DNA of 64,000 bases, taken from positions 32,001 to 96,000 of the IMG/VR virus record IMGVR_UViG_3300021400_001346; one strand, given 5' to 3'. Made by a program: the position numbers and the translations under genes. Source of the DNA: a virus. Taxonomy: Duplodnaviria > Caudoviricetes. Below the pieces are notes generated by a model. The model had not been told where the DNA came from and did not search any database. It saw only the letters and a list, made by a program, of their open reading frames with translations. This document shows positions 83-61,700 of the stretch, piece after piece (position 1 is the first letter of the stretch; each line of letters begins with the position of its first letter).

Positions 83-538
83 TTATTTTAACTTATTCTT
101 TTTACTTGCTAACTCTGCCAACTTCGCCGCGCGTTTCTTTTCCAACTCGGCCTCGTGACGTGAACGTTCCTCTGCCTTAGCAAGACGCTTTGCAGTTTTT
201 TGGGCGCGCTCTTCATCGTAAGCAATGGCTTCAAGGAAGGGGTCAAAGTCAAGGCTTTTGATGGTGCTTTTTAACTCCCAACTAAATGTAAAACCACCAG
301 GTTCGTTTTCAACTGCGATGACGATGCCTTCTTTGGTTTCAAGAATGTCGAAATCGTCGCCTCATAGGGCTTTGAGGTCGCTAATAAGAGCCTCAAGTCC
401 GCGCTTACGAAGTTCATTACGAGCGCTTTGTTGAATAGTTACGGTGCCGGTGGAGGTAGTATTGGTAGCGTAGGTATTGATGGCTACTTCATGCAAGAAG
501 TCCTTAAAGAGAGAAGAACTATTATTACTTTCGTTCAT
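83..538 (-). CDS. Hypothetical protein, 151 aa, with a C-terminal charged coiled coil; one internal TGA (362-364)
   Basis: RBS AGGAGG before ATG 538, and a sigma70-like promoter (TTGACA-17-TATACT) at about 560-588. The frame stays open past TGA (..KAL*GDDFDILETKEG..) to TAA at 83. Confidence 0.75.
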
Positions 539-607
539 GTAATTTCCTCCTAACAGTATTAGTATATTTGAGAAAACTCGACTTGTCAAGCAAAAATTGG
601 TTTGGCA

Positions 608-641
608 AATAAAAAAGAAGGGACGATTGTCTCCCTTCTCT
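608..641 (-). terminator. Intrinsic terminator closing the ~700-nt non-coding transcript
   Basis: Minus strand GAGAAGGGA-GACAATCG-TCCCTTCT followed by a T-run. Confidence 0.8.
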
Positions 642-1323
642 ATTCGCAGTGGTTCATTATTTACTTTATGTTGCGTAGAACATCTGACGTAGCCGCAATG
701 TGGGTGGGAGATGGTATCTCCTCTTCGATGGTGCAAGGCCATCACCCCGTTCGATCGTGGGTCTAGTTTAGACCTGTTGCAGTATTTTCGGGCTTATCTG
801 ACTAGCCTTAGTAGCGAATGATGAGCGCTACGCCCACCAATAATAAGCATCGTTATTGGACTTAACCATTGACGGAGGTTGCCACCCGGAAGTTAGATAG
901 GAACTTCGCCTTGCTATTCGTAGGGTACTAGTATAATACTAACGGGCATAACTGACCGCATTGATTGTCTTCATTCGCAGTAGAAGGTAAGAACAATGAG
1001 ACTTATGTACTGCTTTGGTTGCGATGTTCATTTGACTTCGCCGTTAACGCGGACTGTCCACGCCAGTGAGCTAATTTTTGGTCTAGAAAATTAGATGAAA
1101 AGAATAGTTTGGTTTTTAGGCGTACGCTAGGATAGGTATCTATGGACTTACATACCATTGGGTAATGCCTCACCCTAACCCGAAATGTGATTTGGTTTTA
1201 GGCGTACACTAGGATAGGTTTTCTGGACTGACGCTTTAAAGCTGCCTACACCCAACCCGGTGATAGTAATGTCGCGAGTAAAGCCTTACAAACGCACGAT
1301 AGAGGTCTTTTTTAACTTTACTA
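610..1323 (-). ncRNA. Putative ~700-nt structured ncRNA, unclassified, with two tandem ~70-85-nt units at its 5' end
   Basis: Lies between a consensus promoter (1332-1360) and a terminator (608-641). No credible ORF or RBS, raised GC, at least 8 short hairpins. Confidence 0.6.
1107..1260 (-). repeat. Two imperfect tandem copies of a structured unit GGGTT(A)GGGTG(T)AGGC-[variable hairpin]-GTCCA..ACCTATCCTAGYGTACGCCTAAAA(A)CCAAA
   Basis: Direct alignment of 1191-1260 with 1108-1182. Confidence 0.85.
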
Positions 1324-1331
1324 TCTAATTT

Positions 1332-2674: not shown

Positions 2675-3502
2675 TTATTTTCTCCTTTCCCAATTGAGTT
2701 TGATAGTTGATAAGGTTTCATTTAATATTTGACGGACACGTTCACGGGTGATGCCGAGTTCAAGTCCGATGGCTTCAAGTGTATGTTCAGAGCGCCAATC
2801 TTCTGGATCAGTAGGTTCGCCGAGTCCGAAACGCATTTTGATGATGGTTTGGACACGTGGTTTGAAGGTGCTGATGACAGACATAAGGCGGTCATGAGTT
2901 AAACTTTCTTCTGCGTAGCCGCTTGGTGTTGGTTCACTGGTATCGGCGCAAAGGTCGGACAAGGTGTCTTCACTGTCGTCGCCGAGTGGCATATCGATGC
3001 TGTAAGTGTCTGACTTCCAGCCGCGCAATGCTTCAACTTCATCTGCGGTAATACCCATGCGGGCCGCGATGGACTCGTTGGTGATGTCAACACCTTCGTT
3101 GGTGAGGTCGTTGATGGCCGCGCGATACTTTGAAAGTTTGGCGTAGATGTGGGCTGGAATACGAATATTACGACCCTTGTCGGTAATAGCTTTGGTGATG
3201 GCTTGTTTAATCCATGGAGTCGCGCAGGTGCTAAAACGATAGCCAAGGTCTGGGTTATATTTTTCTACTGCGGTGATAAGTCCGGTGTTGCCCTCCATGA
3301 TAAGGTCGAGCAAATCGAGATGTCTATTTTGATAGTTCTTCGCAATAGAAACAACTAGACGCAAGTTGCTATTGATAAGTTGTTCACGTGCGGCCGCATC
3401 GCCATTACGGTATTTATAGGCAAGGTCAAGTTCTTCCTCTGGTTTGAGAAGAGGATATTGACCGATGGTAATTAAATAATCTTTAAGTGTATTTGTGCTC
3501 AT
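2675..3502 (-). CDS. RNA polymerase sigma-70 family factor (RpoD/SigA-like, no region 1.1)
   Basis: Region 1.2 (DYLITIGQYPLL..EE), region 2 (LINSNLRLVVSIAK, DLIMEGNTGL..AVEKY, RFSTCATPWIKQAI), region 4 (TLEAIGLELGITRERVRQI). Confidence 0.95.
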   Translation of the reverse strand: MSTNTLKDYLITIGQYPLLKPEEELDLAYKYRNGDAAAREQLINSNLRLVVSIAKNYQNRHLDLLDLIMEGNTGLITAVEKYNPDLGYRFSTCATPWIKQAITKAITDKGRNIRIPAHIYAKLSKYRAAINDLTNEGVDITNESIAARMGITADEVEALRGWKSDTYSIDMPLGDDSEDTLSDLCADTSEPTPSGYAEESLTHDRLMSVISTFKPRVQTIIKMRFGLGEPTDPEDWRSEHTLEAIGLELGITRERVRQILNETLSTIKLNWERRK

Positions 3503-11165: not shown

Positions 11166-11603
11166 TCAATATACTAATTGCAATAGTTTATCTTTTAAAT
11201 CCGTCTGGATTTTTTTCGCACATACTTTTATTTTACGGCAATTTAAATTATTATAATATTGCATATCTTTTTCAAAATTTTGTATACAATCCATTAAGGC
11301 TTTTAAATTTCCGTCCGTTTTATTACGTGCCCATCTAAACATTAAGCGGGCTATCCATTCTTCTTTACTTCCGTCTGGAATAATTAGAATAAAATTTACT
11401 TTTAATTTCATAAGTGTTTCAATAACACATGGGTGGGCTGATAAGAAAACATCTTTTCCGTCTGCTTCTATTTTGCGTGCAGTATAAATATAATTAACTT
11501 GCCAATTTTTTACTTTTTTAAAAGTATTACTATCTAAATCAATACCGTCCGTCTCAGCGCACAATGTTGTTTTACCTACGCCACTATATCCACAAAATAG
11601 CAT
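11166..11603 (-). CDS. P-loop NTPase, nucleotide-kinase-like, 145 aa
   Basis: N-terminal Walker A GYSGVGKTT followed by IDLDS; NMP-kinase-like size. Confidence 0.75.
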   Translation of the reverse strand: MLFCGYSGVGKTTLCAETDGIDLDSNTFKKVKNWQVNYIYTARKIEADGKDVFLSAHPCVIETLMKLKVNFILIIPDGSKEEWIARLMFRWARNKTDGNLKALMDCIQNFEKDMQYYNNLNCRKIKVCAKKIQTDLKDKLLQLVY

Positions 11604-12434: not shown

Positions 12435-13397
12435 CTACTTCTTATTCAACCCAATCTCCGTACACCCGTACCAGTCGATCCACCATCTTTCTCTTTCATT
12501 CAACAGTCTTCTATCATTCACCCTCTCAACTACTTCTCAGTAGAAATCTTCAATCAGATGGTCCTCATACAACTTCTCACCTCCACTACTCTCCACTCCT
12601 ATCATCTTTTTAGCGTGTTGGTACCATCTCTCCTTAATATTAACTGCCTGCCCAACATAGCAAACCCTAACATCATCTTTCAACACCAATCTATAAATGC
12701 CGCAACAACCGTCGGCTTCTTCTCTCTTCACCAATCGTTGCATGGCTGGCATTCAGACCTTTCTCCATTCGATGGCCGCCAATTCACTTTTCAAATCCCC
12801 GTACTCTTCCTCGATCGTCCTAATCAGTTTCACTAACTTCATGTCTCTCCCACTCACTTCAAGCGGCCAACCATTTTCGCCACCTTCTTCCTTTCAGCCG
12901 CGCAAGACCGCTAACCTATTCTCTGTCTGTAGCCTCTCCAATTCTTCCACCAGTCTTTGAACTTCTTCTTTGCGGCGACCCAACACGCTGTCGACTTGAG
13001 TCAATTCTTCCTTGGCATGCACCAAATCGGCCGCCACCTTCTCCATTTCAGCTTGGCGTTCATTGAGAGCCGCGAGTTGTTGTCCAGCATGGGCGCTCAA
13101 GTCTTCCTGTTGACCCTTCAGAATATTCGCCCTCTCTTCTCAATAATTCACCTGGTTTTGAAGTTCATCAATGCGGCCACATTTGGCTAATAGAGCCTCA
13201 TTTGACGCTGTTACCTTCTTTAACTCCTCAGCCGCCTTATCTCGTTCCTCAATAGCCTTAGTTAACTTAACTACCAATTGCCTAACTTCATCGGCATGGT
13301 CGTCACTTTTATCCTTCTTATATTTAATTAAAACGGTTGTAACAATTAACGCCGCGATTAATACCATCGCCACGCTTACGCATATTCCTATTACCAT
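12435..13397 (-). CDS. Membrane-anchored coiled-coil GIY-YIG endonuclease, 320 aa; four internal TGA
   Basis: TGA at 13140, 12894, 12753 and 12537 join three track ORFs. N-terminal hydrophobic helix, GIYRL..CYVGQAVNIKERW, and LNERERWWIDWY..GLN beyond the last TGA. Confidence 0.85.
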
Positions 13398-44781: not shown

Positions 44782-45907
44782 AAGTAAACTCCTTTTCTCA
44801 AATTGATCATGGTATTGTAATGTCGTTCTCTTTTTTATTTCCCCATTCGGTAAGTAAAAATTCTTTGTTTTGATAAGTTTGTCGTAATAAATCACGGAAT
44901 ACTGGATGCCATTCGTAAGGGCGACACCAGTATAATTGTTGTCTGTCTCGGCTGTATCCAACATAGCGGGCTGATAAATAGGCTAACCAGCTGCGCTTAT
45001 AAGATTTACTATTAGTCCATTCTGACACCATTTGAAACATAAAGAAATAAGGTGTCTCAGTATATTCTTTAGGTCCAATTACTTGCAACTGGATTTTATT
45101 TTCCTTGCAGAGAGTTATCCTACTACACAATAAATTAAATTCGTTTTGCGCTATTTTTGTATCTACCCAATGTTTGGAAGGAACCGGGCTGTATTTCATA
45201 GATAGCGGGCCAATTTTGGCGTTAGGAAAGGCTGTTTTTATTCGCACTAGTCCTTTTAACGCAACGTCAAATTCATTTCAACTGATAACATACCACTTTA
45301 AGTTTGAACCAGCACCAATTGATAATTCTAAGAAGATTTGAAACAATTCTTCATTCATCACCAGACGCATTAAATCAATTGGCTTGGTAAAATATAAGTT
45401 CTTGTGTCCCTTTAGTAAAGTGAATACTTCGATAAGGTCTTCTGTCGCGGCGTGTCATAAGGCAGGATCAGTTAACATTAAACGCTTGTGTTGAAATGCG
45501 TTCGTATAATCTTGAGTTAATGGTAAACGCTTGCCGTCATTATCAAAGAAACGCACTTGTTCTGCCCTTTCCAGTTGTGTATTTAATTCTGGATAAAGTA
45601 AATAATCAGGTCGACATCCTAACATTGCAGGTGTCATTTTCCATTTGACCTTTACTCTATATGCATCTCCCCACCATCTGACCTTTTTATTTAACAAGAA
45701 GTCTAGTGGTGGGTTAGGTGTTTCACTTTTCTCTTTAATAATATAATAGATATCATATGGTCGGCGAATATCGTCTTCCTTAGTAACGAAATTAATAGTA
45801 TCACCTAATTGCTTGTGATAACTACTAATTTTCATTACATCTGGATTAAAACAATTTACTTTTTCAGGCGCATAGTAATAATCTAAATCTCAAATACTAA
45901 CCTTCAT
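44771..45907 (-). CDS. 378-aa protein with five TGA; N-terminus resembles phage radical-SAM-type proteins but has no CxxxCxxC
   Basis: MKVSI[W]DLD..NPDVMKISSYHKQLGD..RPDYLLYP; TGA at 45890, 45455, 45278, 44807 and 44798; overlaps both neighbours. Confidence 0.65.
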
Positions 45908-48900: not shown

Positions 48901-49955
48901 TCTTCTTTATATTCATCAAAATGTTCATATGCAACACGTGCTATAACTTGTTTTTGGTCTAATGTATAATAAGAGCACATTTGTTGAATACGATTTGTAT
49001 TATTAATCATTTCTTGGAATTGTTCTTCGGTTATATAACTTTTCATAAAGCCATAAACTTCTTCCGCGGCCATCATATATGCATAACCATAAAATTCGTC
49101 GACATCTCTAGTTCCACTGGAACGGCTATTTAAAAATGCCTTATGAACTTCTCTTAAAGCTGGCTTTAAATAATGCGCGTCTGTTGTAAAAATAAAAGGA
49201 TACTTGCCCCAATAATTATTAATTAACCATTTATTATAATCTATTTGGTCAAACTTTTCACTTGGTTGTAACTCTAAATAATAATTCCCCTTACCAAATA
49301 ATTCTTCCATCATTTGTAAGTGATTATCAATTTGTTGTTTAATCGCACGTTTTTGTTCTTCGTCTAAGCATGCCACCATCTCGTTATATTTACGCGCGAC
49401 ATATCCAGCCAAACATGCTGTTGAACATACTATATGTCCACCTTTAACAATTTCAAATAAATCAGATGGATAGGTTGGTGTTCTCATCATACGTCCATAA
49501 AAGAACCCACGACTCCATGCGCGACTACTTAATTGACGTATTTGTTTAAAACCTTCGGCATCTTTTGCTACTAAAAGATAATGATAAAAATAGGTCTTTT
49601 CACCATTCTTATAGTTTTCTCTTTGCGTTTCTTCAGTGACACCTTCGGCTGTTAGATAAATTTCATTACCCAACATAATTTTAAAGTTTAATTCAGCAGC
49701 CATTTCTTCTACTGATGGTACTTCTTTGTCTGGATTTAATTTTGTCCATTCATCAGTTATTTTTCTTTTATAACAATCTAATTCTTCAATGGCACCTGAA
49801 ATACAATCATGGTCAGTAAAAGCGAGACCAGAAAACCCTAAGTCCCACGCATAATTAATCATATCCATTGGACGATTAATACTATCTATAACATGGACAT
49901 TTGAATATTCTGTATGATTATGTAATGATGTATAAAATTGATGTTCTGATCTCAT
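45897..49955 (-). CDS. dnaE: DNA polymerase III alpha subunit
   Basis: PHP domain (LHNHTEYS, FTDH, TTDAHY), GPSRGSAG, PDIDVD, GVHASG, KYDLL, GYSFSRLH, PDINES. Confidence 0.97.
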   Translation of the reverse strand: MRSEHQFYTSLHNHTEYSNVHVIDSINRPMDMINYAWDLGFSGLAFTDHDCISGAIEELDCYKRKITDEWTKLNPDKEVPSVEEMAAELNFKIMLGNEIYLTAEGVTEETQRENYKNGEKTYFYHYLLVAKDAEGFKQIRQLSSRAWSRGFFYGRMMRTPTYPSDLFEIVKGGHIVCSTACLAGYVARKYNEMVACLDEEQKRAIKQQIDNHLQMMEELFGKGNYYLELQPSEKFDQIDYNKWLINNYWGKYPFIFTTDAHYLKPALREVHKAFLNSRSSGTRDVDEFYGYAYMMAAEEVYGFMKSYITEEQFQEMINNTNRIQQMCSYYTLDQKQVIARVAYEHFDEYKEDLEFFDDVDEQTYPNFYYYLHTDNQADNYLARLIAHGYINKYDETWNSETYYNRLEEELWTIKEVGEKIGQHMSDYFISMAKMIDLMWEAGSIVGPSRGSAGAMLINYLLGITQMNPIELNLPYVWRFMHPSRPDLPDIDVDSESDKRAAVFNNIREYFQSLGGDVVNVCTFGTEGTKSALKTAGRGLNIDDDLITYVTSMIPNERGFDWSLHDCYYGNGEDREGRAAFKQVMDENPMLWEVAQGIEGLVTRLGVHASGVVCLNSPLTDYAGFMKTNKEQLVTCFDLHKLERCGLVKYDLLTVSALDRIHQTMNYMLEDGTLEWQGDLRSTYNKYLSPQVIDYNDKEMWDKAANGEIRSLFQFDTLVGGQAIKQIRPHSLTELAVANSIMRLMGEKGAELPLDKYVKFKTSPQLWYDEMNEYGLNADEVKVLKKYLEGSCGLAESQEVVMELSMDPHISNFTMQEANRLRKTIAKKAFREIENVRQLFYEKGLAAGTRKVLLDYVWKVQIGMSLGYSFSRLHTTGYSIIAVQEMNLAHKWPIIYWNTACLSVDSSAINAQDFYNLVDENIVEIDEVEGKRVQNKMDYAKIAQALDNFRGSGCKVRLPDINESRLGFTPDVKDNSILYGLKGISRVTAPVIEEIMINRPYSSLKDFLNRTTSRIVTKDKVINLIKCGAFDRIEKKDRKEILTDFIWQVCDAKQKLTMQNANMLIDQGLLPPELSYESEVYKLTKELRKHRDKNKLWYIGDALEVPVDKIDIWKQIIVDAGVRGQDLVLDGVPCRVMDSNLWDNFYDRKMLTIKNYIKAHHDELLEKLNNRLFMTEWNKYCNGDELQWELDSVNFYFDGHPLTKVIPQLGIEVNFLEEVVEGAPDGFFLIKGKQIPKMKLYTLAGTVIDRDKVKGLVTLQTVDGVVSLKVYKDLYSTFVAVIGDINENGEKDIEQDSFFEKGVHLLVTGIQRGATFIPKVYKNTGRQAIERIVLDDMGNFVELEEKRSVQNEG

Positions 49956-49984
49956 ATTTGTTTTCCTTTACTTATTTTATTATA

Positions 49985-50200
49985 TTATATCTTTTTGGCT
50001 TCGTCAATACTTTCTTGGCCTATATCCCAAAACTCATTATAAAGAGTGTCTGCATTATCGTAGTAATCAGTAATTAATTCAATGGCTTGTTCTTTTGTGC
50101 AGTCAATGTAAATATCATCCATAATAGACATAAAGAACTCTGGATAATCTGACCTAGACATAACTGCGCCCCATTTCTTTTTAAACTCTTGTAAATTCAT
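49985..50200 (-). CDS. Hypothetical protein, 71 aa
   Basis: ORF coupled to recJ. Confidence 0.6.
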   Translation of the reverse strand: MNLQEFKKKWGAVMSRSDYPEFFMSIMDDIYIDCTKEQAIELITDYYDNADTLYNEFWDIGQESIDEAKKI

Positions 50201-51993
50201 TATATTAAATCTCCTAAATTATTAGAACGAACAATTTGTGTAGACAACAGTGGTTCTACAACATAATCGTCCATAACGATTTGTATGCTTGAACGCCCCA
50301 TAAACTCATTTAAGCTTGGCGCACCAACAATCGTGATGTGTCCAGATGTATAAGTTTGTAATAATTTAACAAGCGCGGCATCTTTGAAAGTTACAAAATC
50401 TATACCATCGTATTTAATTTTTACTGAGCTCTTGTCTTTACCCATGATTTGAACATTTGAAGGCGAATAGTTAAAATCAAATGCAAATAATGGACGAGGT
50501 AAACCATTACCCCATAATTTATCTTGTTGCGCGAACTCATATAACATACCTTGGTCAATAAAGTCACTGCTATGGAACCAATAATCAACCTCAAACACTG
50601 TATCATTAAATGATTCGGCGTTTAACATCTTGTCTGAATAAGCGCGCAATGCATCAACATTTTCTTTAGTGATAAATAAGCCATGCGCATTGGCGTGTCC
50701 AGCCGCGTATAAAACCAAGCCACTTTGTTTTAGAAAGTCAAGTAAACTTGGAATGCCGTAGAAATTACCATTACGTCCACTACCTCCATAAACCATCTGT
50801 CCTTCGTATTCAGTGGTACGTAAGACTAAACATGGTTTGCCGAACTCTTTAACAAGTTCCATGGCGATAAGCCCCGTAACGTTTTGATTTACTTTTTTAC
50901 TATCTTCTTCATTAATTGTAGCAATGACAATATTATGTTGGTCCCACCCGTTTTTGCGGATTTCGTCGCATAACCATTCAAAGGACTTTTTCTTTGCACT
51001 GTCTTGTCTACTCTTGGCATTTACTGCAAGACGAACGGCATGTTGATATAACGTTTCATAGTTCTTTACGCCGCGCCATTCGTGAAGGAAGTTCTCAGTG
51101 CAATTTTCTTCCCATAAGGCACGGAAGACTAAGTTCTTATCTTCAGCAGTGCCGCTACGAATAACACCATTAATAACAGGTGCAATATAGAAGGCAACAT
51201 CAATCTTGCTAAGGTGAGCCGCGTCTTTGATGCCTCTTTCTTGTTTTTCTGCCAATTCCTTTAAAAATTTATTTTTAATATTATTAAGACCATTATAAGC
51301 AATCCAGTTATTGCCGAGAGTAGTCATATTCATGGCATCTGCAATAATTCCTACCGCGGTTAAATCTAAGTAATCGTCTGCGATAGGCGAATCGGCGAAA
51401 TGTTTTTCGTCCATGGCTCGTAAGAACATATAGACGATACCAACACCGCTTAAGTTCTTATTGAAGAACTCAGGACTAAATTGGTTATTAACCAAGATGG
51501 CGCCGGTCTCTTCATAATTTTCATTAACTTCGTGATGGTCTAAAATAATAACAGTCTTATTTGCGGCGATAAGTTCTTTTTGTTGTTCATAATCATTTGA
51601 ACCGGCATCAGGAATAAATATTAACTTATCATCTGTTTTGATGTAGTCGCAATTAATACCATGTTCCTTGCCATTATGTAATTCATAATTAATTCTTACT
51701 GTTGGCCATCTGCGTTTAATGTATGAGATTAAAATCGCAGATGATGTAAAACCATCTGTATCAGAGTCCGGTTGAACATATACATTCGCGCCGCCATTAA
51801 GCAACTGATAGGCGGTTTCAACGGCATAGTCTAAGTTCAATAACTTGTGAGGATTATCAACATCTGAGAAACGTGGAGCCGCCAAAAAACTATTAACATC
51901 TTGGATTTTAATACCCAAGCTAGTTAAATAACTGGTTAAATAACTTTTATCGCCAGGATTGATGTGGTTTACTTTTAATTCAATACGTTTCAT
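50200..51993 (-). CDS. recJ: RecJ-like ssDNA exonuclease (DHH/DHHA1)
   Basis: DSDTDGFTS, HG, ILDHH, GIIAD, APVIN, GSGR, AGHANAHG. Confidence 0.93.
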   Translation of the reverse strand: MKRIELKVNHINPGDKSYLTSYLTSLGIKIQDVNSFLAAPRFSDVDNPHKLLNLDYAVETAYQLLNGGANVYVQPDSDTDGFTSSAILISYIKRRWPTVRINYELHNGKEHGINCDYIKTDDKLIFIPDAGSNDYEQQKELIAANKTVIILDHHEVNENYEETGAILVNNQFSPEFFNKNLSGVGIVYMFLRAMDEKHFADSPIADDYLDLTAVGIIADAMNMTTLGNNWIAYNGLNNIKNKFLKELAEKQERGIKDAAHLSKIDVAFYIAPVINGVIRSGTAEDKNLVFRALWEENCTENFLHEWRGVKNYETLYQHAVRLAVNAKSRQDSAKKKSFEWLCDEIRKNGWDQHNIVIATINEEDSKKVNQNVTGLIAMELVKEFGKPCLVLRTTEYEGQMVYGGSGRNGNFYGIPSLLDFLKQSGLVLYAAGHANAHGLFITKENVDALRAYSDKMLNAESFNDTVFEVDYWFHSSDFIDQGMLYEFAQQDKLWGNGLPRPLFAFDFNYSPSNVQIMGKDKSSVKIKYDGIDFVTFKDAALVKLLQTYTSGHITIVGAPSLNEFMGRSSIQIVMDDYVVEPLLSTQIVRSNNLGDLI

Positions 51994-53069
51994 TATTTTA
52001 TTATCTCCCTTTCAGCTAATAGTTTTTCAAAAGTCTCTTTGCCGCCATCAATTGGACTACTCTTGTATGGTAATACAAAGTCGTAATCTATTAAGATGCT
52101 TACATTAAAGTAAGGCGATAATAGACGCGCTTTGGCAATATACTTTTCTCGTACTTCTTGTAGTTGCTGATAATCTTCATAATCGGTATCATATGCTAAA
52201 ATAACATTTGCGACACCCAATTTTAATAAATATTGTATGTGTTCTCGTGTAATATTTTGACCTAAAGTTGCAAGTGCAATATTTTGGTCATCTCCATAAA
52301 TGGTTCCATAGTGCAATACTGACTTTTCACCCTCAAAAATAATACACATATGTTTTCTTCTTATGTTCTTTTGGTTTTCCCATATGCCATAAAAGGTGCG
52401 GCCCGTTGGGTGATTGAATAATTGATTGTCCAAATAGGCTGGACGATACTTACCTTTTAAAATATCTTCTGGTTTGAAAAAACGTTCTCGAATCCCTATT
52501 AAATTACCTTTCATGTCAAAGTTAGGGATTAGAATGGCATCGTGGGCTTTATTATATTTAATATTAAACTTCTGCAAAGTTTCGATGCTGATGCCTTCTT
52601 CAATCCAAGGCATTAACCCTGCAAAATCAAAACTAAATTTTCTTAAGATACTTTTGTCGTATACCTTAAAATTTAAGTTGTCGATATCTGGTATATACAT
52701 ATTGTTTAAAGTTTGCATATACTTAATATCTTCAGACGTATTATATTTTCTATCTTCTACTACAATGTGACTTGCATCTAAATCACATAAACTAACCGCT
52801 TGTTGTAATGTAATCTCTTGGTCACGCAATTTATACATCTTTTGCAATAATGTAAAGATGTCAAATGTATCCGCGCATTCAGTAAAGCAGTGGAAGAGTT
52901 TACTATTTTTATAATAATATAACTTTGGACTGCCGCCTTCCAAGTTGTGGCAACAAGTAGGGAATATTATTACTTCGCTAGTTTCATCATATGGTTCTAC
53001 ATTAAATTGACCTAAAATATTTTTAATCATTTCATCTGTCAATTGTTCTCTTAACTCTTTAAAATTCAT
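51993..53069 (-). CDS. DNA primase (Zn finger plus TOPRIM)
   Basis: CCH..HCFTEC, IFEGEKS, LAYDTD. Confidence 0.88.
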   Translation of the reverse strand: MNFKELREQLTDEMIKNILGQFNVEPYDETSEVIIFPTCCHNLEGGSPKLYYYKNSKLFHCFTECADTFDIFTLLQKMYKLRDQEITLQQAVSLCDLDASHIVVEDRKYNTSEDIKYMQTLNNMYIPDIDNLNFKVYDKSILRKFSFDFAGLMPWIEEGISIETLQKFNIKYNKAHDAILIPNFDMKGNLIGIRERFFKPEDILKGKYRPAYLDNQLFNHPTGRTFYGIWENQKNIRRKHMCIIFEGEKSVLHYGTIYGDDQNIALATLGQNITREHIQYLLKLGVANVILAYDTDYEDYQQLQEVREKYIAKARLLSPYFNVSILIDYDFVLPYKSSPIDGGKETFEKLLAEREIIK

Positions 53070-53070
53070 A

Positions 53071-54657
53071 CTATATGACTCCTTTTGAAACTAATTCTAA
53101 ATAATCATACAGTTTCTTATCATACTTTAAGAGACCATAATCAGCAATTGCTTTATAACTTGAGTCTGTAACAAACAAGTCTTCGCAATGGCAGGTGGCA
53201 AAATCAAAGTATCTAAATATTTTAACACAGTTCATTTCGCCGCGTCGATTTTTATATACGTCTATAACAATATTTGGCTCTTTTGTAAAACGACCCGCCT
53301 TTTGATTTTTTAATTCAGTCCAAATCGTTTCAATTTGTTTCTTTTCTTCGTCACCTAATCTAACACCAATTAAACCAATATCAATTTTATCGGCAATGGC
53401 TTTAGACCCTCTTAAACAGTTTTGGTCACGCAATCCTATTTCGCGTTTACTCCAGTTTTCATTCAACTGTGTGGCGCTTTGAATAAATACATTATATGTC
53501 ATCGCAATTTCTTTTAAAGTATTACTTAACATCATTAATGCTACATATTCTTTAACATCTGCACTTGCAAACTCTGTGATTAAACTTGGAGAAGTAAAAA
53601 TATAATCATAAAAGATATATTCTACATTATCTTGCACTATGTATTTTGTTAAACGCGCCTTAATCATGGCGATACTTGGGTCAGGAATACACTCAATAAT
53701 AAAATTACTTCCATACTTATCTATAATCTTGAGTGCCCTTTGAACTCTATCTAATTCGTCTGGTGAATAATTACCTAACAAAATAGTTTTTTCATTAACA
53801 CCGCTAACATATGCTAAAATTAAAGTTTGAATTTCATCTGCTTGCATTTCAGTTGCAACAAATAAAACTTTTTGATAATCTGCGCCGTCTTCTCCACGCA
53901 CCACGACATGGCCATCTTTATCAATATATGGCATACTAATCGCGCATGCGTTGCCGACCATATAACGAGTTTTACCTGAACCTGATGGTGCACTATAAAT
54001 ATATAATTTGCCAAGTCTGGCTCCTCTCGCGGCCCAATTTATTATATCGCCGTCAAGTGGCAATCCGACTTCTGGATGCGCCTGTAATTCGGCAACCAAG
54101 TCTCTTAAACCCGCAGATGCTGGTTGAGATGTTCCTTGGTCCTTTCCAATATGTCTATTTTCAATATCAACTACTTCACTACGCAATGTCTCCAGAATCG
54201 AATTAATCGACATACGATTTAATTTTTCATCTTCGATATCACGATTTAAAGTATTCGCCGTATTGTAAAAATTAGAAGTGTCAATACCAAGACTTTCTAA
54301 ATCTCTCAGTACTGAAAACTTTTTGACTCTTGCATAATAATAGTCAAATTGCTTTTCGTCACTTCCTTCGGCAGTTTGATAACATTGAGTTACATACTCG
54401 TAGCCTTTATTTTCTTTATAATATGTATATTGTCCGTCGTATTGATGTATATATAAATCTACATCTTGCGGCGTAATTTTTTCGACTCCTTGGTTTGCCA
54501 TATTAAAAATGGCATAAAATATTATTTGTTCCAAAGGTTTATAAAAGTCCGTCTTTACAAATGCATATCTCTCATCTTGTAATAAAAGCGGCTTTCTCAT
54601 TAAACAACTAAGTACATACAATGAAGCACTGGAGTCGAAGAGGTCTTTAGTTATCAT
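53071..54657 (-). CDS. dnaB: DnaB-like replicative helicase
   Basis: SAPSGSGKT, ATEM, FYDYI, ATQLN, LRGSKAIADKID, KNRRG. Confidence 0.92.
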   Translation of the reverse strand: MITKDLFDSSASLYVLSCLMRKPLLLQDERYAFVKTDFYKPLEQIIFYAIFNMANQGVEKITPQDVDLYIHQYDGQYTYYKENKGYEYVTQCYQTAEGSDEKQFDYYYARVKKFSVLRDLESLGIDTSNFYNTANTLNRDIEDEKLNRMSINSILETLRSEVVDIENRHIGKDQGTSQPASAGLRDLVAELQAHPEVGLPLDGDIINWAARGARLGKLYIYSAPSGSGKTRYMVGNACAISMPYIDKDGHVVVRGEDGADYQKVLFVATEMQADEIQTLILAYVSGVNEKTILLGNYSPDELDRVQRALKIIDKYGSNFIIECIPDPSIAMIKARLTKYIVQDNVEYIFYDYIFTSPSLITEFASADVKEYVALMMLSNTLKEIAMTYNVFIQSATQLNENWSKREIGLRDQNCLRGSKAIADKIDIGLIGVRLGDEEKKQIETIWTELKNQKAGRFTKEPNIVIDVYKNRRGEMNCVKIFRYFDFATCHCEDLFVTDSSYKAIADYGLLKYDKKLYDYLELVSKGVI

Positions 54658-55066
54658 ACTTATCTACTCCTTCGACATGAATTTCATTCATATCTAATTG
54701 TTTAGGTTGTCTCTTTTTATGTTCTAATGATTTTATGTTGAATATTATATTATTGTCTTGATACTCTACTATCTTTTTTGCCTCGATAGCTTGATTTCGT
54801 TGGTCAAGTTCCAACTTTTTAAAATACTTATCAACTTCTTCTCTTATAGACGCAAAGATTTTAACGCCGTAAAGTGGTGATATCTCTTTCTGCGCTACTT
54901 CCACATACCAAACGGCGCAACGTGCAACTTCTTTTAACGTAAAATTATCATCTAATACTAATGAATTAATTTGACGTTTAATCATATTAGGGAGCGGGCC
55001 GCTTAGACCCATATACTCCCTAATTAAATCTTCTACATAAGTTCTAGTTATTAGAGTTTCTTCCAT
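54647..55066 (-). CDS. Hypothetical replication-module protein
   Basis: ORF overlapping both neighbours. Confidence 0.6.
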   Translation of the reverse strand: MEETLITRTYVEDLIREYMGLSGPLPNMIKRQINSLVLDDNFTLKEVARCAVWYVEVAQKEISPLYGVKIFASIREEVDKYFKKLELDQRNQAIEAKKIVEYQDNNIIFNIKSLEHKKRQPKQLDMNEIHVEGVDKYDN

Positions 55067-55817
55067 TAAGAGCTGCCTCAATTTCGCCTAAGAAATAAGA
55101 AACCTTTTGCATATTGGCGCAGTCTTCTGTGAAGGTTGTTGTTGATAATTTTTTACCTGGGAATAATTTTGTAACATATGCAACAATTGCGTTACTTGCA
55201 TTTTTATCTTTTTGTCCGCTGGCAATAATTTGAATAACATGTTCTTTAAGTTTTTCAAAATCTGCTTCTGAAAGTGTTTGACAATTATAATTATCTGCGG
55301 CTACTGCAATACCATCGAAATCAATTGCCATTTTGACTTTTTCATCTTCTGGTAAATCTTCACCTGCATAAATATATAATCCTAAGCCATGTCTTGCACA
55401 TACTTTAACAAATGCTCTTTGTAAAGCCTTATTAACTGCGGTTGAAGTAACAACTTCGGCACGGATAGCATTTTGTTTGTTATCCATAACTGGAAGATAT
55501 TCAATATATTGACGATTATCAATAGTTAAACCAACTTTAACATAACAAGTTTTTCCATCTGTAAAATATGGAACTTCGTTAGTTGTTTCTTCAACGGTTA
55601 CTGATTCATAACCATCTGCTATACTTTTAGTAGTAGTAGTTGAAGTTACTTCTCTGGTAAAAATTGTATAAACGGCATCGGGATATCTTTTCATGATTTC
55701 TCCCCATGCGTATGCCCAACTTAAATATGTTAAACCTATTTTTTCTTTTGTCTTATCTTTTAAACTAATTGAATTTAATATATCAAAACTGGTTAATTTC
55801 TTTTCTTCGCCTGTCAT
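55044..55817 (-). CDS. Single-strand annealing protein (DUF1071/Sak-like)
   Basis: LTYLSWAYAW, YLPVMD, QRAFVK..ARHGLGLYIYAGEDLP. Confidence 0.88.
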   Translation of the reverse strand: MTGEEKKLTSFDILNSISLKDKTKEKIGLTYLSWAYAWGEIMKRYPDAVYTIFTREVTSTTTTKSIADGYESVTVEETTNEVPYFTDGKTCYVKVGLTIDNRQYIEYLPVMDNKQNAIRAEVVTSTAVNKALQRAFVKVCARHGLGLYIYAGEDLPEDEKVKMAIDFDGIAVAADNYNCQTLSEADFEKLKEHVIQIIASGQKDKNASNAIVAYVTKLFPGKKLSTTTFTEDCANMQKVSYFLGEIEAALNGRNSNN

Positions 55818-55876
55818 TTTTATTCTCCTTTATTAAATAAGTCTAACGAATAAGCGGCGGTGTTATTTTCCACCGC

Positions 55877-56761
55877 TTAAATTAAACTAGCTTGTCTAGC
55901 ACTAATTGTTTTACTTGCAGGAACTTCAGTGTTGTCTCCAGCTGCGGCGCTATTAGCAGCATTTGCTTCTAATTCTTTACCTTCAGCCTTATAAGAATTG
56001 ACTAAACTATTGATAATAGGTCTTCCATATTGTCTATTATCTGTAATAACTGTTGAACCGCTTTCAATGAAGTAGTTATTTTGTTTATTAGTGTATGTTC
56101 TTGTAACTGGTGTACCGAAAGCTGCATTGTCGTCTTGAACAGTAACTTGTTCAACTTTGAAGATTAATGAACCACTGAATTGAACAGTATCACCGGCTTG
56201 GTATAATTTTTGAATACTATTAACAACATCAGTTCTTGCTGGATCAACGTGAAGAGTGAATAAACTCATCTTGTCACCTGCATAATTTGCTTGAGCAAGT
56301 CCTAAATCATAACGATAAATTTCGTTTTCTTTATTTTTCTTTTCAGTTAAAGTTGTAACAATGAATCCACCTAAAATGAAACGAGCGACATCTGGTTCAG
56401 TAACTACAACGCCTTTAACGAAGTTGCCTGATAATTGAGTTGCAGATGCTAATTGTTTTGTTTTAGTGCTGAAGAATCTGTTTTCTCTTAATGAACCATC
56501 AATTTGAACTTTCTTGCCAACTAATGAACCCATTTTAGAATAAGATTCATAAAGTTTATTTGGAGTTTTATCTGCTTTTAATTGATTTGAGTAGAATCTA
56601 ACTGGATATTCACAATGAATACCGTTAATTTCTGCACCAACAAGTGCTTCTACTGAAATGTAACCAGCTCCATCTGATTTCTTATTACCATACTTAATTT
56701 GTGCATCTAGTAATGTTCCAACGATTGTAAATGAGTTTTCTCTGTAAAATGTGTCTGCCAT
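55877..56761 (-). CDS. Putative ssDNA-binding protein (tandem OB-like)
   Basis: ENSFTIVGTL.., VQIDGSLRENRF; adjacent to the SSAP; biased codons. Confidence 0.6.
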   Translation of the reverse strand: MADTFYRENSFTIVGTLLDAQIKYGNKKSDGAGYISVEALVGAEINGIHCEYPVRFYSNQLKADKTPNKLYESYSKMGSLVGKKVQIDGSLRENRFFSTKTKQLASATQLSGNFVKGVVVTEPDVARFILGGFIVTTLTEKKNKENEIYRYDLGLAQANYAGDKMSLFTLHVDPARTDVVNSIQKLYQAGDTVQFSGSLIFKVEQVTVQDDNAAFGTPVTRTYTNKQNNYFIESGSTVITDNRQYGRPIINSLVNSYKAEGKELEANAANSAAAGDNTEVPASKTISARQASLI

Positions 56762-56844
56762 AATTTCTCCTTTTTAATTTTCTCTTTTAATTATTCTAGC
56801 AAAGTTTTTTCTTTTGCGCAAGCTACATTTCAATTGCGCAGAAG

Positions 56845-57114
56845 TTAATTTTGATATGAACGACCAAAGTCGGTCAATAAATATGTTTGATATTCTTTAG
56901 GTTTTGTTTCGCCCTTAATATTAGTAAAGTTTCTAGTGATAGGGTCTCCCTTTTGGACTAGTTTTCTGTTTACTAAAGAGTTAAGGACAGGATAAATACC
57001 TTTAATTCCTGTTGCATCAGCGATGTCTTTTCCAACTAATAATTCGTCATGCCCTTGCATATATTCAAGAACAACCTTACCATTATCAGTTAAAATAATC
57101 TTATCATCATTCAT
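56845..57114 (-). CDS. Small winged-helix-like protein, 89 aa
   Basis: LTDNGKVVLEYM..GKDIADATGIKGIYPVLNSLVNRKLV..TYLLTDFG. Confidence 0.7.
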   Translation of the reverse strand: MNDDKIILTDNGKVVLEYMQGHDELLVGKDIADATGIKGIYPVLNSLVNRKLVQKGDPITRNFTNIKGETKPKEYQTYLLTDFGRSYQN

Positions 57115-57216
57115 GCTTGTGTCTCCTTTTAATATTTTGTCTTATTAATACTATGTAGCGAGTAATTAACAAATACATTATATTAATGTAAATGGGCTTA
57201 GTCAATATTGTTTTGC

Positions 57217-59460
57217 TTAAATAATATCTTCTAGTACCCTGTTAGTGATAAGCGCTCCAGTCGCAGTTTTACTCTTAATGGATACTTTATCGCGGCTAAT
57301 TGATAATACTTTGCCGCCTTTCAAGATACCATAAATAGTATCTCTACCATTGACAAAAGGTTTAATCCATTTAGTTTTTTCAAGAACGAGCTGTCCTTTA
57401 TTTCCGCGGCTATCGACTCCAAAGTCTTGAACGGCGGTTAATTTACCTTTGCGGTCGTCGGTTACCATTAATAAGTAATCTTGGTTGTTAACTGCCATTG
57501 CGGCCACAATGTTGGTGAATCCGGTTTTTACACCAAGCGTAAGTCTGCCTGCAACTGGCAAGTCTTTAACTGCCAACTTTAAGATATGTTCAGCGCCGTC
57601 ATATAACACAATAAAGTCATTATCGTCTACAAATCCAACGAAAACTAAGCTATCGTTTTCTTTGAGTTTCATAACCTTATCGGCCTTTTTAAGTTTATAA
57701 TCACTAACTAAACTAACTTTAATATTACCATTTTTGGTAACTGCTACCAATTTGTCTTTTGAACTATCGTGAACCGTAGCGCCGCGAATAATTACGCCGC
57801 TGTAGTTATTAACAGGTGCAAATTGTTCTTTATCATATACAAAGATGTCATCTGTTGAATAAGCAAAGACGATGTCTTTTAAGCAACTGCCGAGATCCGC
57901 GATGGAGTTAGTACTACTATGTACACCGTCATCAAAGATTTTCCATTCTTTGCGGATAACAATTGGTGCGGTGGCACTATTATTGCTTACTTCTTCAAGA
58001 GGACGGCGATAAACAATTTCGGTTAAACGCTTATCTTCGCCAACAACTTTCTTAATCTCTGCCAAATCAGCACGAATTACTTTATAACGTTCTTGTTCAT
58101 CTGTAATGATTTTGTTTAATTTGGCAAGTTGTTCTTCTAAATCACTACGAGTTTGATTTAATTCCTTAATGTCAAGTCGATTTAGGCGGCTTAATTTCAT
58201 ATCTAAAACCGCATTGGCTTGTTCTTCATTAAGTTCAAAAGTCTTCATAAGCGATTGTAGAGCCGCAATTCTACTTGGGGCATTGCGGACAATTTGAACA
58301 AGTAAATCAATATCACTCATACATTTTTGTAAGCCAAGAGTAATAGTTAGTTTATGATTAGTCTTGTCGTAGTCTGTTTGGGCAATCTTTCTAATGATGC
58401 CGCTACGATAGTTTACCCAATACTCTATCATCTGTTTAAGATTAAGAATACGAGGTTCACCATTAATGATAAGGGTTTGGTTAATTTTTACTGTTTCTGC
58501 GAGTCTTGTTTTTGTCATTAAGAGATTTAAACATTCTTGAATGTTAGCGTCTTTACTTAATACAACAACAATATCTACACGCCCCATATCATCTTTCTTT
58601 AAGGTGTAAATATTTTGAAATGCTTCATAACCATCTTCTAAAATTAATTTTTTAAGAGGCGCCTTAACACCGTCTTCAACATTAACCCCATAAGGAAGGT
58701 CATGAAAGGTAATTAATGTTTCTTTTCCTTGTTTAGAAATATCATAATGTGCGGTCATTTTTACATTGCCGCGACCAGTAGAATATATATTTAACAATTC
58801 ATCGCCATTAGTAATGATACCGCCAGTTGGAAAATCAGGACCTTTAATATATTGCATTAAATCAATGATTTTACAATCTGGGTGCGCCATATAATAATTA
58901 ATGGCGTCTGCTACTTCTGTAAAGTTATGCGATACCAAATTACTGCCCATACCAACTGCAATGCCTTCATTATTGCCGCAAAGTAAATAAGGGAATTTAG
59001 AAGGTAAAGTAACTGGTTCTTGCAATGTGCCATCATAATTTGGCTTCCAGTTAATACAATTCTTATCAAGGTCTTCAAGCATTAACATACCGATTTCACT
59101 TAAACGGCATTCTGTATATCTTGAAGCCGCAGGTCCGTCACCTAAAACGTTACCAGCATTACCTTGAATATAAACTAATGGATATCTTAATTTCCACCAT
59201 TGTCCTAAACGAACTAATGCACCATAAGCAGATGCATCGCCATGAGGGGAATACTTCATGGCGGAACCTACCTCAGTCGCACATTTTTTAGTTTTCTTAT
59301 CGGCATACACTTTATCTTCATATAAAGTATAAAGTATTTTACGATGAATTGGCTTTAAATTATCTTCTGCGTATGGAATTGCACGGCTTTTAATAACACT
59401 ATTGGCATAAACAAGAAAATCATTTTTACTACGTTCGTTTAAAAGATTTTCATTAGCCAT
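57217..59460 (-). CDS. gyrA: Type IIA topoisomerase subunit A (GyrA/ParC)
   Basis: DNLKPIHRKILY, PHGD, AASRYTE (catalytic Tyr), GPDFPTGG, C-terminal blade repeats. Confidence 0.92.
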   Translation of the reverse strand: MANENLLNERSKNDFLVYANSVIKSRAIPYAEDNLKPIHRKILYTLYEDKVYADKKTKKCATEVGSAMKYSPHGDASAYGALVRLGQWWKLRYPLVYIQGNAGNVLGDGPAASRYTECRLSEIGMLMLEDLDKNCINWKPNYDGTLQEPVTLPSKFPYLLCGNNEGIAVGMGSNLVSHNFTEVADAINYYMAHPDCKIIDLMQYIKGPDFPTGGIITNGDELLNIYSTGRGNVKMTAHYDISKQGKETLITFHDLPYGVNVEDGVKAPLKKLILEDGYEAFQNIYTLKKDDMGRVDIVVVLSKDANIQECLNLLMTKTRLAETVKINQTLIINGEPRILNLKQMIEYWVNYRSGIIRKIAQTDYDKTNHKLTITLGLQKCMSDIDLLVQIVRNAPSRIAALQSLMKTFELNEEQANAVLDMKLSRLNRLDIKELNQTRSDLEEQLAKLNKIITDEQERYKVIRADLAEIKKVVGEDKRLTEIVYRRPLEEVSNNSATAPIVIRKEWKIFDDGVHSSTNSIADLGSCLKDIVFAYSTDDIFVYDKEQFAPVNNYSGVIIRGATVHDSSKDKLVAVTKNGNIKVSLVSDYKLKKADKVMKLKENDSLVFVGFVDDNDFIVLYDGAEHILKLAVKDLPVAGRLTLGVKTGFTNIVAAMAVNNQDYLLMVTDDRKGKLTAVQDFGVDSRGNKGQLVLEKTKWIKPFVNGRDTIYGILKGGKVLSISRDKVSIKSKTATGALITNRVLEDII

Positions 59461-59462
59461 GG

Positions 59463-59705
59463 TTATTCTCCTTTCTTTTCAGCAGCCGCCTTCGCAGCCT
59501 CTTCTTGTAATTTAAAAAGTTCTGTAACTGTAACAACTCTACCGTCATCTAATTTAATAGATACATGGTCCTCAAGAAGACAAAGTCTTTGATTAAGAAC
59601 ATTGATAAAAGATATTAAAACTGAAACAGGGGTATCTGGTCCCAAGTTAATATCTTTCCAACTTTGAGGGGCGGTTGATTGTTGTTGTTGTTTATTTTCT
59701 TCCAT
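59463..59705 (-). CDS. Hypothetical protein, 80 aa, between gyrB and gyrA
   Basis: ORF with AAGGAG RBS. Confidence 0.6.
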   Translation of the reverse strand: MEENKQQQQSTAPQSWKDINLGPDTPVSVLISFINVLNQRLCLLEDHVSIKLDDGRVVTVTELFKLQEEAAKAAAEKKGE

Positions 59706-59759
59706 ATTATTATGCTCCTTTATATTATTATATGTTTGTCAATTCTTATTGTCAATAAA

Positions 59760-61700
59760 TTATTCTATATCATCGTCATCATATTCTTCTTCAAAAAGGT
59801 CATCATCACCTTTAATTGATGATAATCTGTTTTGAATAATGAAATCACGACGTAATTGTGCACTTTTACCCATTAAACTGTCGTATAAGTCTAGTGTGGC
59901 TTGCATGTCGTCAGTTGTTAACTGGACTAAATGACGATTAGCAGGGTCCATGGTCGTTGAGTAGAGTTCTTCCGCGTCCATTTCGCCCAATCCTTTGTAC
60001 CTTGTGATCTCGCATTTGTGGCTTTTGATATATTTTCGATATTCTGCATTGTCTTCGTACCAATATTTAGTTCCATCACGAGCCGCGACGGTTCTATATA
60101 ATGGAGGTGTGGCCGCGTAAACTTTGCCAGCCTCGACTAATTCAGGCAGATGATGTAAAAATAGTGTCATGAGTAAAAGTTCTATATGTTTCCCATCTGA
60201 GTCAGCATCCGTTAATATAATTAGCTTATCATATCTTAAATTTTTAATGTTGAAGTATTCACCGACGCCGCACCCCAAGCAATTTAAGATACCTTGTATG
60301 ATTTCACTTTTGATTGCATCTGCTAATTCTAGGCTAGTGCAATTTTTAATCTTGCCTCTTAAAGGAAGCACTGCCTGATTTTTTGCTTTACTGAGCTTAA
60401 GATTGCCTGCTGCTGAATCACCTTCACAGAAGAATAATTCCGCATTGTTGAAATCAATAGCATCGCATAACTTCTCTGGTAAATCTCTTAAACTATTAAG
60501 ATTTTTACCGCCTTTTGTAATTTTTTCTTGGGCTTCACGTTTTCTCGCGGCGGCATCTTCAGCCTTTTGCTCAATCATAATCTTCTTAAAGATTTGTTCA
60601 CCAACTTTCTTTTCAAAAGTTAATTGCCCAACGGCTTGACTGCACCATTTACGGGCTTCAGGTGAATTTAAAGTAAGTTTAGTTTGTTCACCGAATAAAG
60701 GACGTGTACTCATCTTAATAGATAAAACCAATACTAATCCTTTACGAACAATATCGCCGCTAAAGTTTTTATCCTTATCTTTAAGAATTTCTAACTCACG
60801 CGCGGTTTTATTTATTAATGATGTATAAGCGGTTTTCCAACCTGTAACGTGTGTACCATCGTTTGGTGTGTAGCCGCCATTGACGAAGGAATAAATGGTT
60901 TCAAATGCCTTGTCGCAATAGGCAAAAGCCATTTCAACTTCGCAGGTGCCTTTATCATCGCTCACGGTAGTCTTGAAGTAATTTGGGTCGGTTAGCATGG
61001 TTAGACCGGCGCATTTTATCTTTAGCATATCTTTGATGCCGTTAGAATAGCAGAAGGTATTTCTCTTTTTACCATCTGCCCAAAGTTCAAAGGTAATGCC
61101 ATTATTTAAGAGTGCGTGTAATTGCAATTCGTCAGCAATACGATTAAGATCCCACTTATTATCATTACCAAAAACGGTAGCATCTGGTATAAAACTAACA
61201 ATTGTGCCGCTTGTGTGTCCTTTGGCGGGTTCAATGAATGGGTCATCGTCATAACTGCCGTCAAACACTTCAAACTTACAATGTTCGTCATCTCTCCAAA
61301 CTTCTATAGAAAATTCAGATGAGAGTGCGTTAGTTACGGTGGCACCAACACCATTTAGACCAAGAGAACTTTTATAGTTACCTTGTCCAGTGAATTTACC
61401 TCCTGAATGAAGGTTAGTACACATTTCAATTATCGCCCATTGACCACTTGCGTTGCGGCGGAATGGAATACCACGACCGTTATCAATAACAGTAGCTCGA
61501 TTTTCTTCTGTATTGATTTTTACGGTAATTAATTTACCATATCCCGCGGCGGCTTCGTCCATAGCATTGGCTACGATTTCAGTAAGCAGATGGTGTAAAC
61601 CATTAGAGTCTGCTGCACCGATATACATACCTAAACTTTCTCGTGCCGCTTGTCGATAGTCAAGAGTGATGATTGAATTTTCATCATACTTTTGTATCAT
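59760..61700 (-). CDS. gyrB: Type IIA topoisomerase subunit B (GyrB/ParE)
   Basis: GMYIG, EIVANAMDE, DNGRGIP, LHSGGKF, EGDSA, PLRGK, TDADSDG, RYKGLGEM. Confidence 0.93.
   Translation of the reverse strand: MIQKYDENSIITLDYRQAARESLGMYIGAADSNGLHHLLTEIVANAMDEAAAGYGKLITVKINTEENRATVIDNGRGIPFRRNASGQWAIIEMCTNLHSGGKFTGQGNYKSSLGLNGVGATVTNALSSEFSIEVWRDDEHCKFEVFDGSYDDDPFIEPAKGHTSGTIVSFIPDATVFGNDNKWDLNRIADELQLHALLNNGITFELWADGKKRNTFCYSNGIKDMLKIKCAGLTMLTDPNYFKTTVSDDKGTCEVEMAFAYCDKAFETIYSFVNGGYTPNDGTHVTGWKTAYTSLINKTARELEILKDKDKNFSGDIVRKGLVLVLSIKMSTRPLFGEQTKLTLNSPEARKWCSQAVGQLTFEKKVGEQIFKKIMIEQKAEDAAARKREAQEKITKGGKNLNSLRDLPEKLCDAIDFNNAELFFCEGDSAAGNLKLSKAKNQAVLPLRGKIKNCTSLELADAIKSEIIQGILNCLGCGVGEYFNIKNLRYDKLIILTDADSDGKHIELLLMTLFLHHLPELVEAGKVYAATPPLYRTVAARDGTKYWYEDNAEYRKYIKSHKCEITRYKGLGEMDAEELYSTTMDPANRHLVQLTTDDMQATLDLYDSLMGKSAQLRRDFIIQNRLSSIKGDDDLFEEEYDDDDIE

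Follow-up and report, generated by a model that had tools for sequence, protein, structure and literature searches.

TGA-recoded bacteriophages called 'Agate', with genomes of about 127 kb, have been described from animal guts, including those of cattle; in the passages of that report that were searched, TGA codons accumulate in structural genes and not in the DNA replication machinery, the endonucleases of group I introns are TGA-rich, and a suppressor tRNA is present (bioRxiv 10.1101/2021.08.26.457843). For 'Jade' phages, the searched passages describe a 'code change module' made up of a suppressor tRNA (tRNA-Sup), a tryptophanyl-tRNA synthetase (TrpRS) and release factor 1 (RF1) (bioRxiv 10.1101/2021.08.26.457843). 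In this work, we analyzed a window of 64,000 nt that covers positions 32001-96000 of one virus contig, 115,739 bp long and with a completeness rating of 100% (IMG/VR record IMGVR_UViG_3300021400_001346). In this window, many genes contain in-frame TGA codons while the replication genes contain none. The remainder of the genome, where an intron-split tRNA with the anticodon UCA, tRNA(UCA), is located, was included in the analysis. Our overall reading, to which we assign a probability of about 0.7, is that UGA is read as tryptophan by means of one phage tRNA in a host using the standard code, and that UGA is avoided gene by gene because suppression is limited.

The contig represents a complete, SPbeta-like phage of about 116 kb from the ruminant gut, with a GC content of about 35%, and metagenomes of several studies on bovine and sheep guts contain the same or a near-identical sequence. 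Eight relatives were found in IMG/VR by means of DnaE (61-65% identity); the complete relatives are referred to as G001 (119.6 kb) and G002 (112.8 kb). Orthologue alignments were made between the code-4 open reading frames (ORFs) of the genome and those of G001, G002 and five partial contigs (seven contigs).

Under code 4, ORFs that code 11 leaves fragmented are joined: for the whole 115.7-kb genome, greedy ORF coverage is 85.8% with code 11 and 91.9% with code 4, and the ORFs average 445 and 609 nt, respectively. Among the ORFs of the window with 100 amino acids (aa) or more, 17 contain in-frame TGAs, 41 in all, and one more is present in the gene of a DnaQ-like exonuclease, slightly more than the 40 codons in 16 genes counted in the first-pass annotation. 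Genome-wide, genes of at least 100 aa contain 114 TGA and 331 TGG codons, that is, about a quarter of the phage's tryptophans are spelled UGA. In the orthologue alignments, the position opposite TGA is occupied by TGG-encoded tryptophan in 30% of cases and by another TGA in 28%, followed by a gap (7%), phenylalanine (6.7%), tyrosine (6.3%), leucine (4.6%), serine (1.9%), cysteine (0.6%) and glycine (0.4%). Since this spectrum is the substitution profile of tryptophan, TGA means tryptophan in the phage genes, as had been proposed from the sequence of the window. The glycine reading of code 25 is ruled out by the 0.4% of glycine in such columns, and a seryl reading, which a tRNA with a long arm and G73 might suggest, by the 1.9% of serine.

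Individual genes lead to the same conclusion. Both TGAs of the probable large terminase (TerL), at codons 311 and 428, stand at invariant tryptophan columns in seven relatives (80-84% identity), and the joined protein can be aligned over its full length with 604-aa relatives. The RNase_T domain of the DnaQ-like exonuclease continues through TGA codon 149 and the GIY-YIG domain of an endonuclease through codon 287, so that the restoration of conserved domains by readthrough, reported earlier, holds true. In the PDB sequence matches of a UvrD-like helicase and of TerL, the TGA columns lie outside the matched regions. The name TerL comes from the first-pass annotation; no PHROG, Pfam or PDB match names 14817-16625 as a terminase.

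The distribution of these codons is far from even. The replication block contains 0 TGA and 55 TGG codons, 23 of the latter in DnaE, counts identical to those reported before. The partition to which the first-pass annotation had pointed lies far beyond chance: when genes of 100 aa or more are counted, the block has 0 TGA and 52 TGG against 114 and 279 elsewhere in the genome (Fisher test, p=9.5e-8; window only, p=3e-6), and the TGA fraction is heterogeneous among genes (p<2e-4). The GC content at third codon positions (GC3) is 0.259 in the block and 0.245 elsewhere, which is no difference, so composition does not explain the partition. All eight relatives found through DnaE show the same TGA pattern. 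In the seven related contigs, the block orthologues contain 1 TGA and 265 TGG as compared with 125 and 291 in the other orthologues (p=2.4e-29); pooled over eight genomes, the replisome contains one TGA versus 320 TGG (1/321 tryptophan codons). The per-gene TGA fraction is correlated between genomes (rho 0.67 and 0.70).

DnaE provides evidence for selection. A-ending and G-ending codons are mixed in 33 of its 40 invariant lysine columns and in 20 of the 32 invariant glutamate columns, while none of the 19 invariant tryptophan columns (133 TGG codons) mixes TGG with TGA. Synonymous A/G turnover is thus saturated, yet the tryptophan columns stay TGG, which means that changes from TGG to TGA are removed by selection in the replication genes. 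The partition is real, conserved and under purifying selection. These data also bear on the idea of a recent import, in which the block would have come from a phage with the standard code, with too little time since then for drift toward TGA. SPbeta-like replisome genes are indeed common among standard-code Bacillota phages, and the DnaE studied here is 38% identical to YorL of SPbeta; however, with DnaE identities of only 61-65% and saturation at synonymous sites, eight contigs lack TGA in the block, and the GC3 of the block equals that of the late genes, which makes a recent import highly improbable.

The partition follows the gene and not only the time of expression. The picture suggested first, with late genes recoded and early genes not, agrees with the presence of TGA in many structural genes but proved too simple. 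In three genomes (the phage and its orthologues), the late capsid and virion core (19716-25397), counted without gene 23700-24431, contains 1 TGA and 35 TGG, and nrdD 0 and 16, whereas the other late genes (TerL, portal, protease, tape measure and tail) contain 57 and 48; virion core and other late genes differ with p=6e-9. Within the virion core, 20229-21233 is taken as the capsid gene from its position. The absence of TGA from nrdD (0/7) and the sigma factor gene (0/4) is as stated in the first-pass annotation. On the other side of the divide, a TGA-rich gene of 378 aa overlaps the end of dnaE, and its six orthologues contain 2 to 18 TGAs each; genes for the UvrD-like helicase and a RuvC-like resolvase, located beside the replisome, carry TGAs as well. 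The TGA-richest genes encode endonucleases, collagen-like and tail proteins, and two proteins of about 560 aa with no assigned function (9 TGA and 3 TGG each).

A strict temporal switch, in which early genes would follow the standard code and late genes code 4, so that the change of code times late expression, is for these reasons unlikely. It is the published model for recoded phages (Borges et al., in the parts of that work that were searched), and it would account for the TGA-rich structural genes as well as for the lack of TGA in the replication block, the sigma factor gene and most of the leftward early region. It does not predict the TGA-poor late virion core of three genomes, nor the TGAs in the gene overlapping dnaE and in the DnaQ-like, UvrD-like and RuvC-like genes. 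Moreover, the unit that ends in tRNA(UCA) starts at a perfect sigma-70 consensus promoter, from which host RNA polymerase would make the tRNA from the start of infection; tRNA(UCA) is thus probably transcribed early. The features discussed in this work are collected in Table 1.

Table 1. Positions and characteristics of the analyzed features (window coordinates, unless given as genome coordinates).
Feature	Position	Strand	Characteristics
Phage sigma-70-family factor, TGA-free (0/4)	2675..3502	-	Pfam Sigma70 regions r1.2, r2, r3, r4
TGA, probable true stop of early gene 11169-11603	11166..11168	-	Inside TTGCAA-17-TATAAT promoter; followed by AAAGGAG-N8-ATG of 39-aa ORF 11010-11129
GIY-YIG endonuclease gene, 4 TGAs	12435..13397	-	Pfam GIY-YIG at residues 231-311, spanning TGA codon 287
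Probable large terminase (TerL)	14817..16625	+	TGA codons 311 and 428; two PHROG halves within one ORF
Portal (2 TGA) and head maturation protease (1 TGA)	16639..19694	+	PHROG portal E=7e-47; protease E=1e-5
Capsid/virion-core genes, TGA-free except 243-aa gene 23700-24431 (5 TGA/0 TGG)	19716..25397	+	PHROG 'virion structural protein' matches
Anaerobic ribonucleotide reductase NrdD, TGA-free	25700..27574	+	Pfam NRDD E=1.6e-93; 0/7 here, 0/9 in G001
Tape measure and tail genes, TGAs 3, 1, 3, 6, 3	29206..44136	+	PHROG tape measure E=8e-53; tail fibre matches for 42756-43544
DnaQ-like 3'-5' exonuclease, one TGA (codon 149)	44146..44964	-	Pfam RNase_T at residues 74-248, through TGA; PHROG 'DNA polymerase exonuclease subunit'
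TGA-rich 378-aa gene	44771..45907	-	11-nt overlap with dnaE 3' end, same strand; 5 TGA/10 TGG
TGA-free replication block	45897..61700	-	DnaE, RecJ-like, primase (Toprim), DnaB-like helicase, Sak annealing protein, GyrA-like, GyrB-like (Pfam)
Terminator-like hairpin	genome 7710-7690	-	After tRNA(UCA)
Intron-split tRNA-Trp-like tRNA(UCA)	genome 7726-8389 = L001:7726-8389	-	5' exon 8389-8356; 3' exon 7789-7726
PD-(D/E)XK endonuclease ORF in intron	genome 8343-7894	-	PF11645; 1 TGA
Probable group I intron, 566 nt	genome 8355-7790	-	Between tRNA positions 34 and 35
Sigma-70 consensus promoter TTGACA-17-TATAAT, perfect	genome 9103-9075	-	Starts unit ending in tRNA(UCA)

No suppressor tRNA or release factor had been seen in the window at first. 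The window is indeed free of tRNA genes; the rest of the genome contains tRNA(UCA), 23.6 kb upstream of the window start. About 31 tRNA genes lie outside the window, together with a transfer-messenger RNA (tmRNA) and a ROOL RNA. The 5' exon of tRNA(UCA) ends ...GCGGU-CUU and the 3' exon begins CAAA-ACCGU. Joined in silico, they form a tRNA of 98 nt with a 7-bp acceptor stem, a 4-bp D stem, the anticodon loop CUUCAAA, G73, an encoded CCA end and a long variable arm. G001 and G002 contain an uninterrupted tRNA(UCA) of 96-97 nt, and the joined product is 96% and 95% identical to two uninterrupted IMG/VR genes, L208 and L220, respectively; such intron-less homologues fix the splice junction between CUU and CAAA. 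The intron has a P1 of 5 bp, formed by exon GUCUU with intron GAGAU and containing a U.G pair at the junction (U before the 5' splice site). Its last base is G (it ends ...GUAAG), the core elements GACUA and AAGAUAUAGUCC are present, and its 3' end almost matches that of tRNA-Leu-type introns in other phage contigs. Intron-split UCA tRNAs occur in three further contigs.

The split gene escaped standard detection: ARAGORN, at normal and lowered thresholds, found no intact tRNA(UCA) in the genome, and the intron-aware mode combined with manual reading was needed. The intron call made by that program, with a CCA anticodon and the 3' exon taken from the second hairpin, was rejected, as it would place a C ahead of the splice site, would require a G.G mismatch within the stem and is contradicted by the junction of the intron-less homologues. 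A selenocysteine tRNA (tRNA-Sec) was also rejected, because the acceptor and D stems have 7 and 4 bp (not 8 and 6) and the UGA columns correspond to tryptophan, not selenocysteine or cysteine; the ARAGORN label 'SeC' reflects only the long arm and the UCA anticodon. An Rfam scan of the window at the gathering threshold and a blastn search of the tRNA/intron region against GenBank phages gave no match.

Several further observations concern this locus. In the sequencing run that is the probable source, a 41-nt contig with a depth of 56 (the phage has about 13) covers the 5' exon only (L001:8356-8387), with a 1-nt deletion, and may come from a related tRNA gene of another, more abundant phage. 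An ORF of 121 aa (L001:8391-8756, minus strand) with two TGAs and an N-terminus that looks GIY-YIG-like by eye ends two bases before the tRNA 5' exon; together with the intron endonuclease ORF, this means that two mobile-element genes flank or interrupt the suppressor. The P1 bases GAGAU of the intron overlap the AAGGAG ribosome-binding site of the endonuclease ORF (L001:8340-8360, minus strand), and P1 formation might mask that site. In many phage contigs of IMG/VR (L233-L261), anticodon-loop group I introns are followed by 3' exons beginning AAAAUCC, similar to tRNA-Leu(UAA).

The long variable arm of tRNA(UCA) carries a loop, N-U-C-C-A-A-A, that copies the one around the anticodon of normal tRNA-Trp; in tRNA-Trp(CCA), the anticodon loop reads CUCCAAA, to be compared with the CUUCAAA type found here. 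With search patterns that left the arm unspecified, 46 unique long-arm tRNA(UCA) genes were recovered, 38 of which have UCCA in the extra loop; the other eight look like true tRNA-Sec. Adding the spliced tRNA of this genome and the tRNAs of G001 and G002 gives 41 genes with a UCCA arm. Of these, 27 have precisely GUCCAAA or CUCCAAA as the loop, and in 39 a stem of 4-8 bp closes it, with 35 distinct stem sequences. The three genomes with a completeness rating of 100%, that is, the phage and its two relatives, encode neither a protein with an RF-1 domain nor a TrpRS (class Ib synthetase); with both genes absent, the parts of a code change that the phage encodes amount to one tRNA only. The identity elements of bacterial TrpRS are the anticodon and G73. 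Since that enzyme reads these elements and the phages encode none of their own, the simplest reading is that the second arm would act as a handle for host TrpRS, keeping the tRNA chargeable by the host enzyme.

Whether TGA also serves as a stop bears on the code of the host. Of two early genes thought to end at TGA, the one at 11169-11603 most likely does terminate at TGA 11166-11168, judging by the promoter and ribosome-binding site signals at that junction; no orthologues of this gene were found. TGA 10047 is a possible stop only, as orthologues of the gene ending near it end at different places. The host probably uses the standard code. This is favored, as a conclusion drawn from indirect signs, because TGA is selected against in essential genes, the phage keeps a tRNA(UCA), TGA 11166 resembles a stop, and prfB is present in metagenome-assembled genomes (MAGs) into whose bins relatives of the phage fall: relatives were binned with a 'Bacilli bacterium' MAG with a small genome and with an Oscillospiraceae MAG, and prfB scores above the curated cut-off in both.

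The opposite possibility, namely that the host itself belongs to a code-4, Mycoplasma-like lineage and the TGA/TGG bias only tracks expression or composition, is improbable. In its favor are the absence of release factor and TrpRS genes from the phage, the fact that TGA is almost never needed as a stop, and the binning of one relative with the small-genome MAG. Against this stand prfB in both MAGs, the TGA at 11166 within sequence resembling a promoter and a ribosome-binding site, and a replisome with a single TGA in eight genomes despite saturated A/G turnover and a low GC3. In addition, a phage tRNA(UCA) with a CCA-loop arm would presumably be superfluous if the host TrpRS already used UCA. 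The earlier proposal of a code-11 host with a switch during infection therefore survives in part: phage-driven suppression in a standard-code host is the better supported option, and the strict early/late division is not.

The mechanism that most likely accounts for the data is a limited suppression of UGA, in a host with the standard code, that controls both timing and dosage. After splicing, tRNA(UCA) would presumably be charged by host TrpRS and would compete with host release factor 2 (RF2) at UGA. Suppression would be absent at first and probably never fully efficient, and processing, splicing, charging and competition with RF2 would be the sources of any delay. If suppression is late and inefficient, selection keeps UGA out of genes whose products are needed at once or in bulk, such as those for the replisome, gyrase, sigma factor, NrdD and the capsid/virion core, while UGA would be tolerated or preferred in genes for lower-copy late proteins (the probable terminase, portal, tape measure and tail fibres), in homing endonucleases and in accessory genes. 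Within this account, the host code, charging by TrpRS, the role of the second arm, the timing, and the high- and low-copy classes are the parts that we infer. A more far-reaching version, tentative and rather doubtful at present, would make UGA a per-gene translation throttle: the UGA content of a gene would set when and how much it is translated, through competition between RF2 and a tRNA that matures only once its self-splicing intron is out and is charged by host TrpRS by way of a decoy CCA arm, and the intron endonuclease gene would need the very suppressor that it interrupts.

Several points weigh against our overall reading. The match of the intron to the group I core model RF00028 is partial (26.7 bits, E=1.2e-4; the gathering score is 50). 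RNA and DNA contigs over genome positions 5000-12000 contain no exon junction, although contig data are uninformative in this respect. Splicing, charging and UGA suppression by tRNA(UCA) are predictions. TGA is not enriched near ORF ends overall, so TGA as a stop is rare at most. The abundance classes of late genes derive from annotation and position. What the MAG bins say in favor of a host with the standard code is weak evidence, and a search for CRISPR-type matches in 106 genomes of the order of one MAG gave short, imperfect matches only, none of them in a repeat array.

The clearest exception to the conserved per-gene pattern is a 332-aa gene just upstream of TerL (window 13815-14813), which contains 0 TGA and 5 TGG here and 4 and 1 in both complete relatives. 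Two collagen-repeat proteins have opposite habits: the gene at window 61941-63773 contains 0 TGA and 1 TGG, while that at L001:43-1416 contains 6 and 0. In an NrdG-like gene (window 27576-28040), TGA stands at codon 142 of 154 and the profile match continues up to residue 145, so that both readthrough and termination are possible. A full-length ROOL RNA (Rfam RF03087, 215 bits) lies within the phage tRNA cluster (L002:6878-7455 = genome 23878-24455, minus strand), and the phage tmRNA (Rfam, 72 bits; L001:17984-18368, minus strand) adjoins a tRNA-Gly gene; G001 has a tmRNA too.

These results provide quantitative evidence for purifying selection behind the avoidance of UGA, which is tied to the gene rather than the module, and they describe a complete phage whose sole code-change part is one tRNA, without a release factor or synthetase. 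If the second arm is indeed a handle for host TrpRS, it would be a natural answer to a problem met in the engineering of suppressor tRNAs. The searchable literature yielded no description of a suppressor tRNA whose variable arm has a CCA loop, nor of an intron-split suppressor; in print, we found neither the division inside the late module nor the DnaE selection test, the lack of release factor and synthetase genes, or the intron-split two-armed suppressor.

The recoding pattern itself is of an already published kind, and the phage is a further member of it. It resembles the Agate phages in its cattle-gut habitat, genome size (about 115-127 kb), TGA as tryptophan and the same recoding pattern, a likeness to that clade by habitat, size, code and pattern alone; it differs in that the late module is itself divided, in that a TGA-rich gene overlaps dnaE and in that the suppressor is intron-split and two-armed, features which are absent from the Agate passages searched. 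Distant similarity links it to SPbeta-like phages of Bacillus and Enterococcus, which have a YorL-type DnaE (38%), a weakly matching portal (about 24%) and a similar genome size but use the standard code. Group I introns in the anticodon loops of bacterial tRNAs are known from the tRNA-Leu(UAA) type and from a tRNA-fMet intron carrying the PD-(D/E)XK endonuclease I-Ssp6803I. The intron described here shares with them the insertion after U34, the U at the 5' splice site, the terminal G and a PD-(D/E)XK ORF (PF11645); in contrast to them, it interrupts a stop-codon suppressor, and its endonuclease ORF contains a TGA. Finally, as in the Jade phages, to the extent of the searched passages, a phage-borne tRNA(UCA) would drive UGA to tryptophan in a standard-code Firmicutes host, but where Jade phages add TrpRS and RF1, this phage and its two complete relatives have neither, and the tRNA bears a copy of the CCA loop instead.

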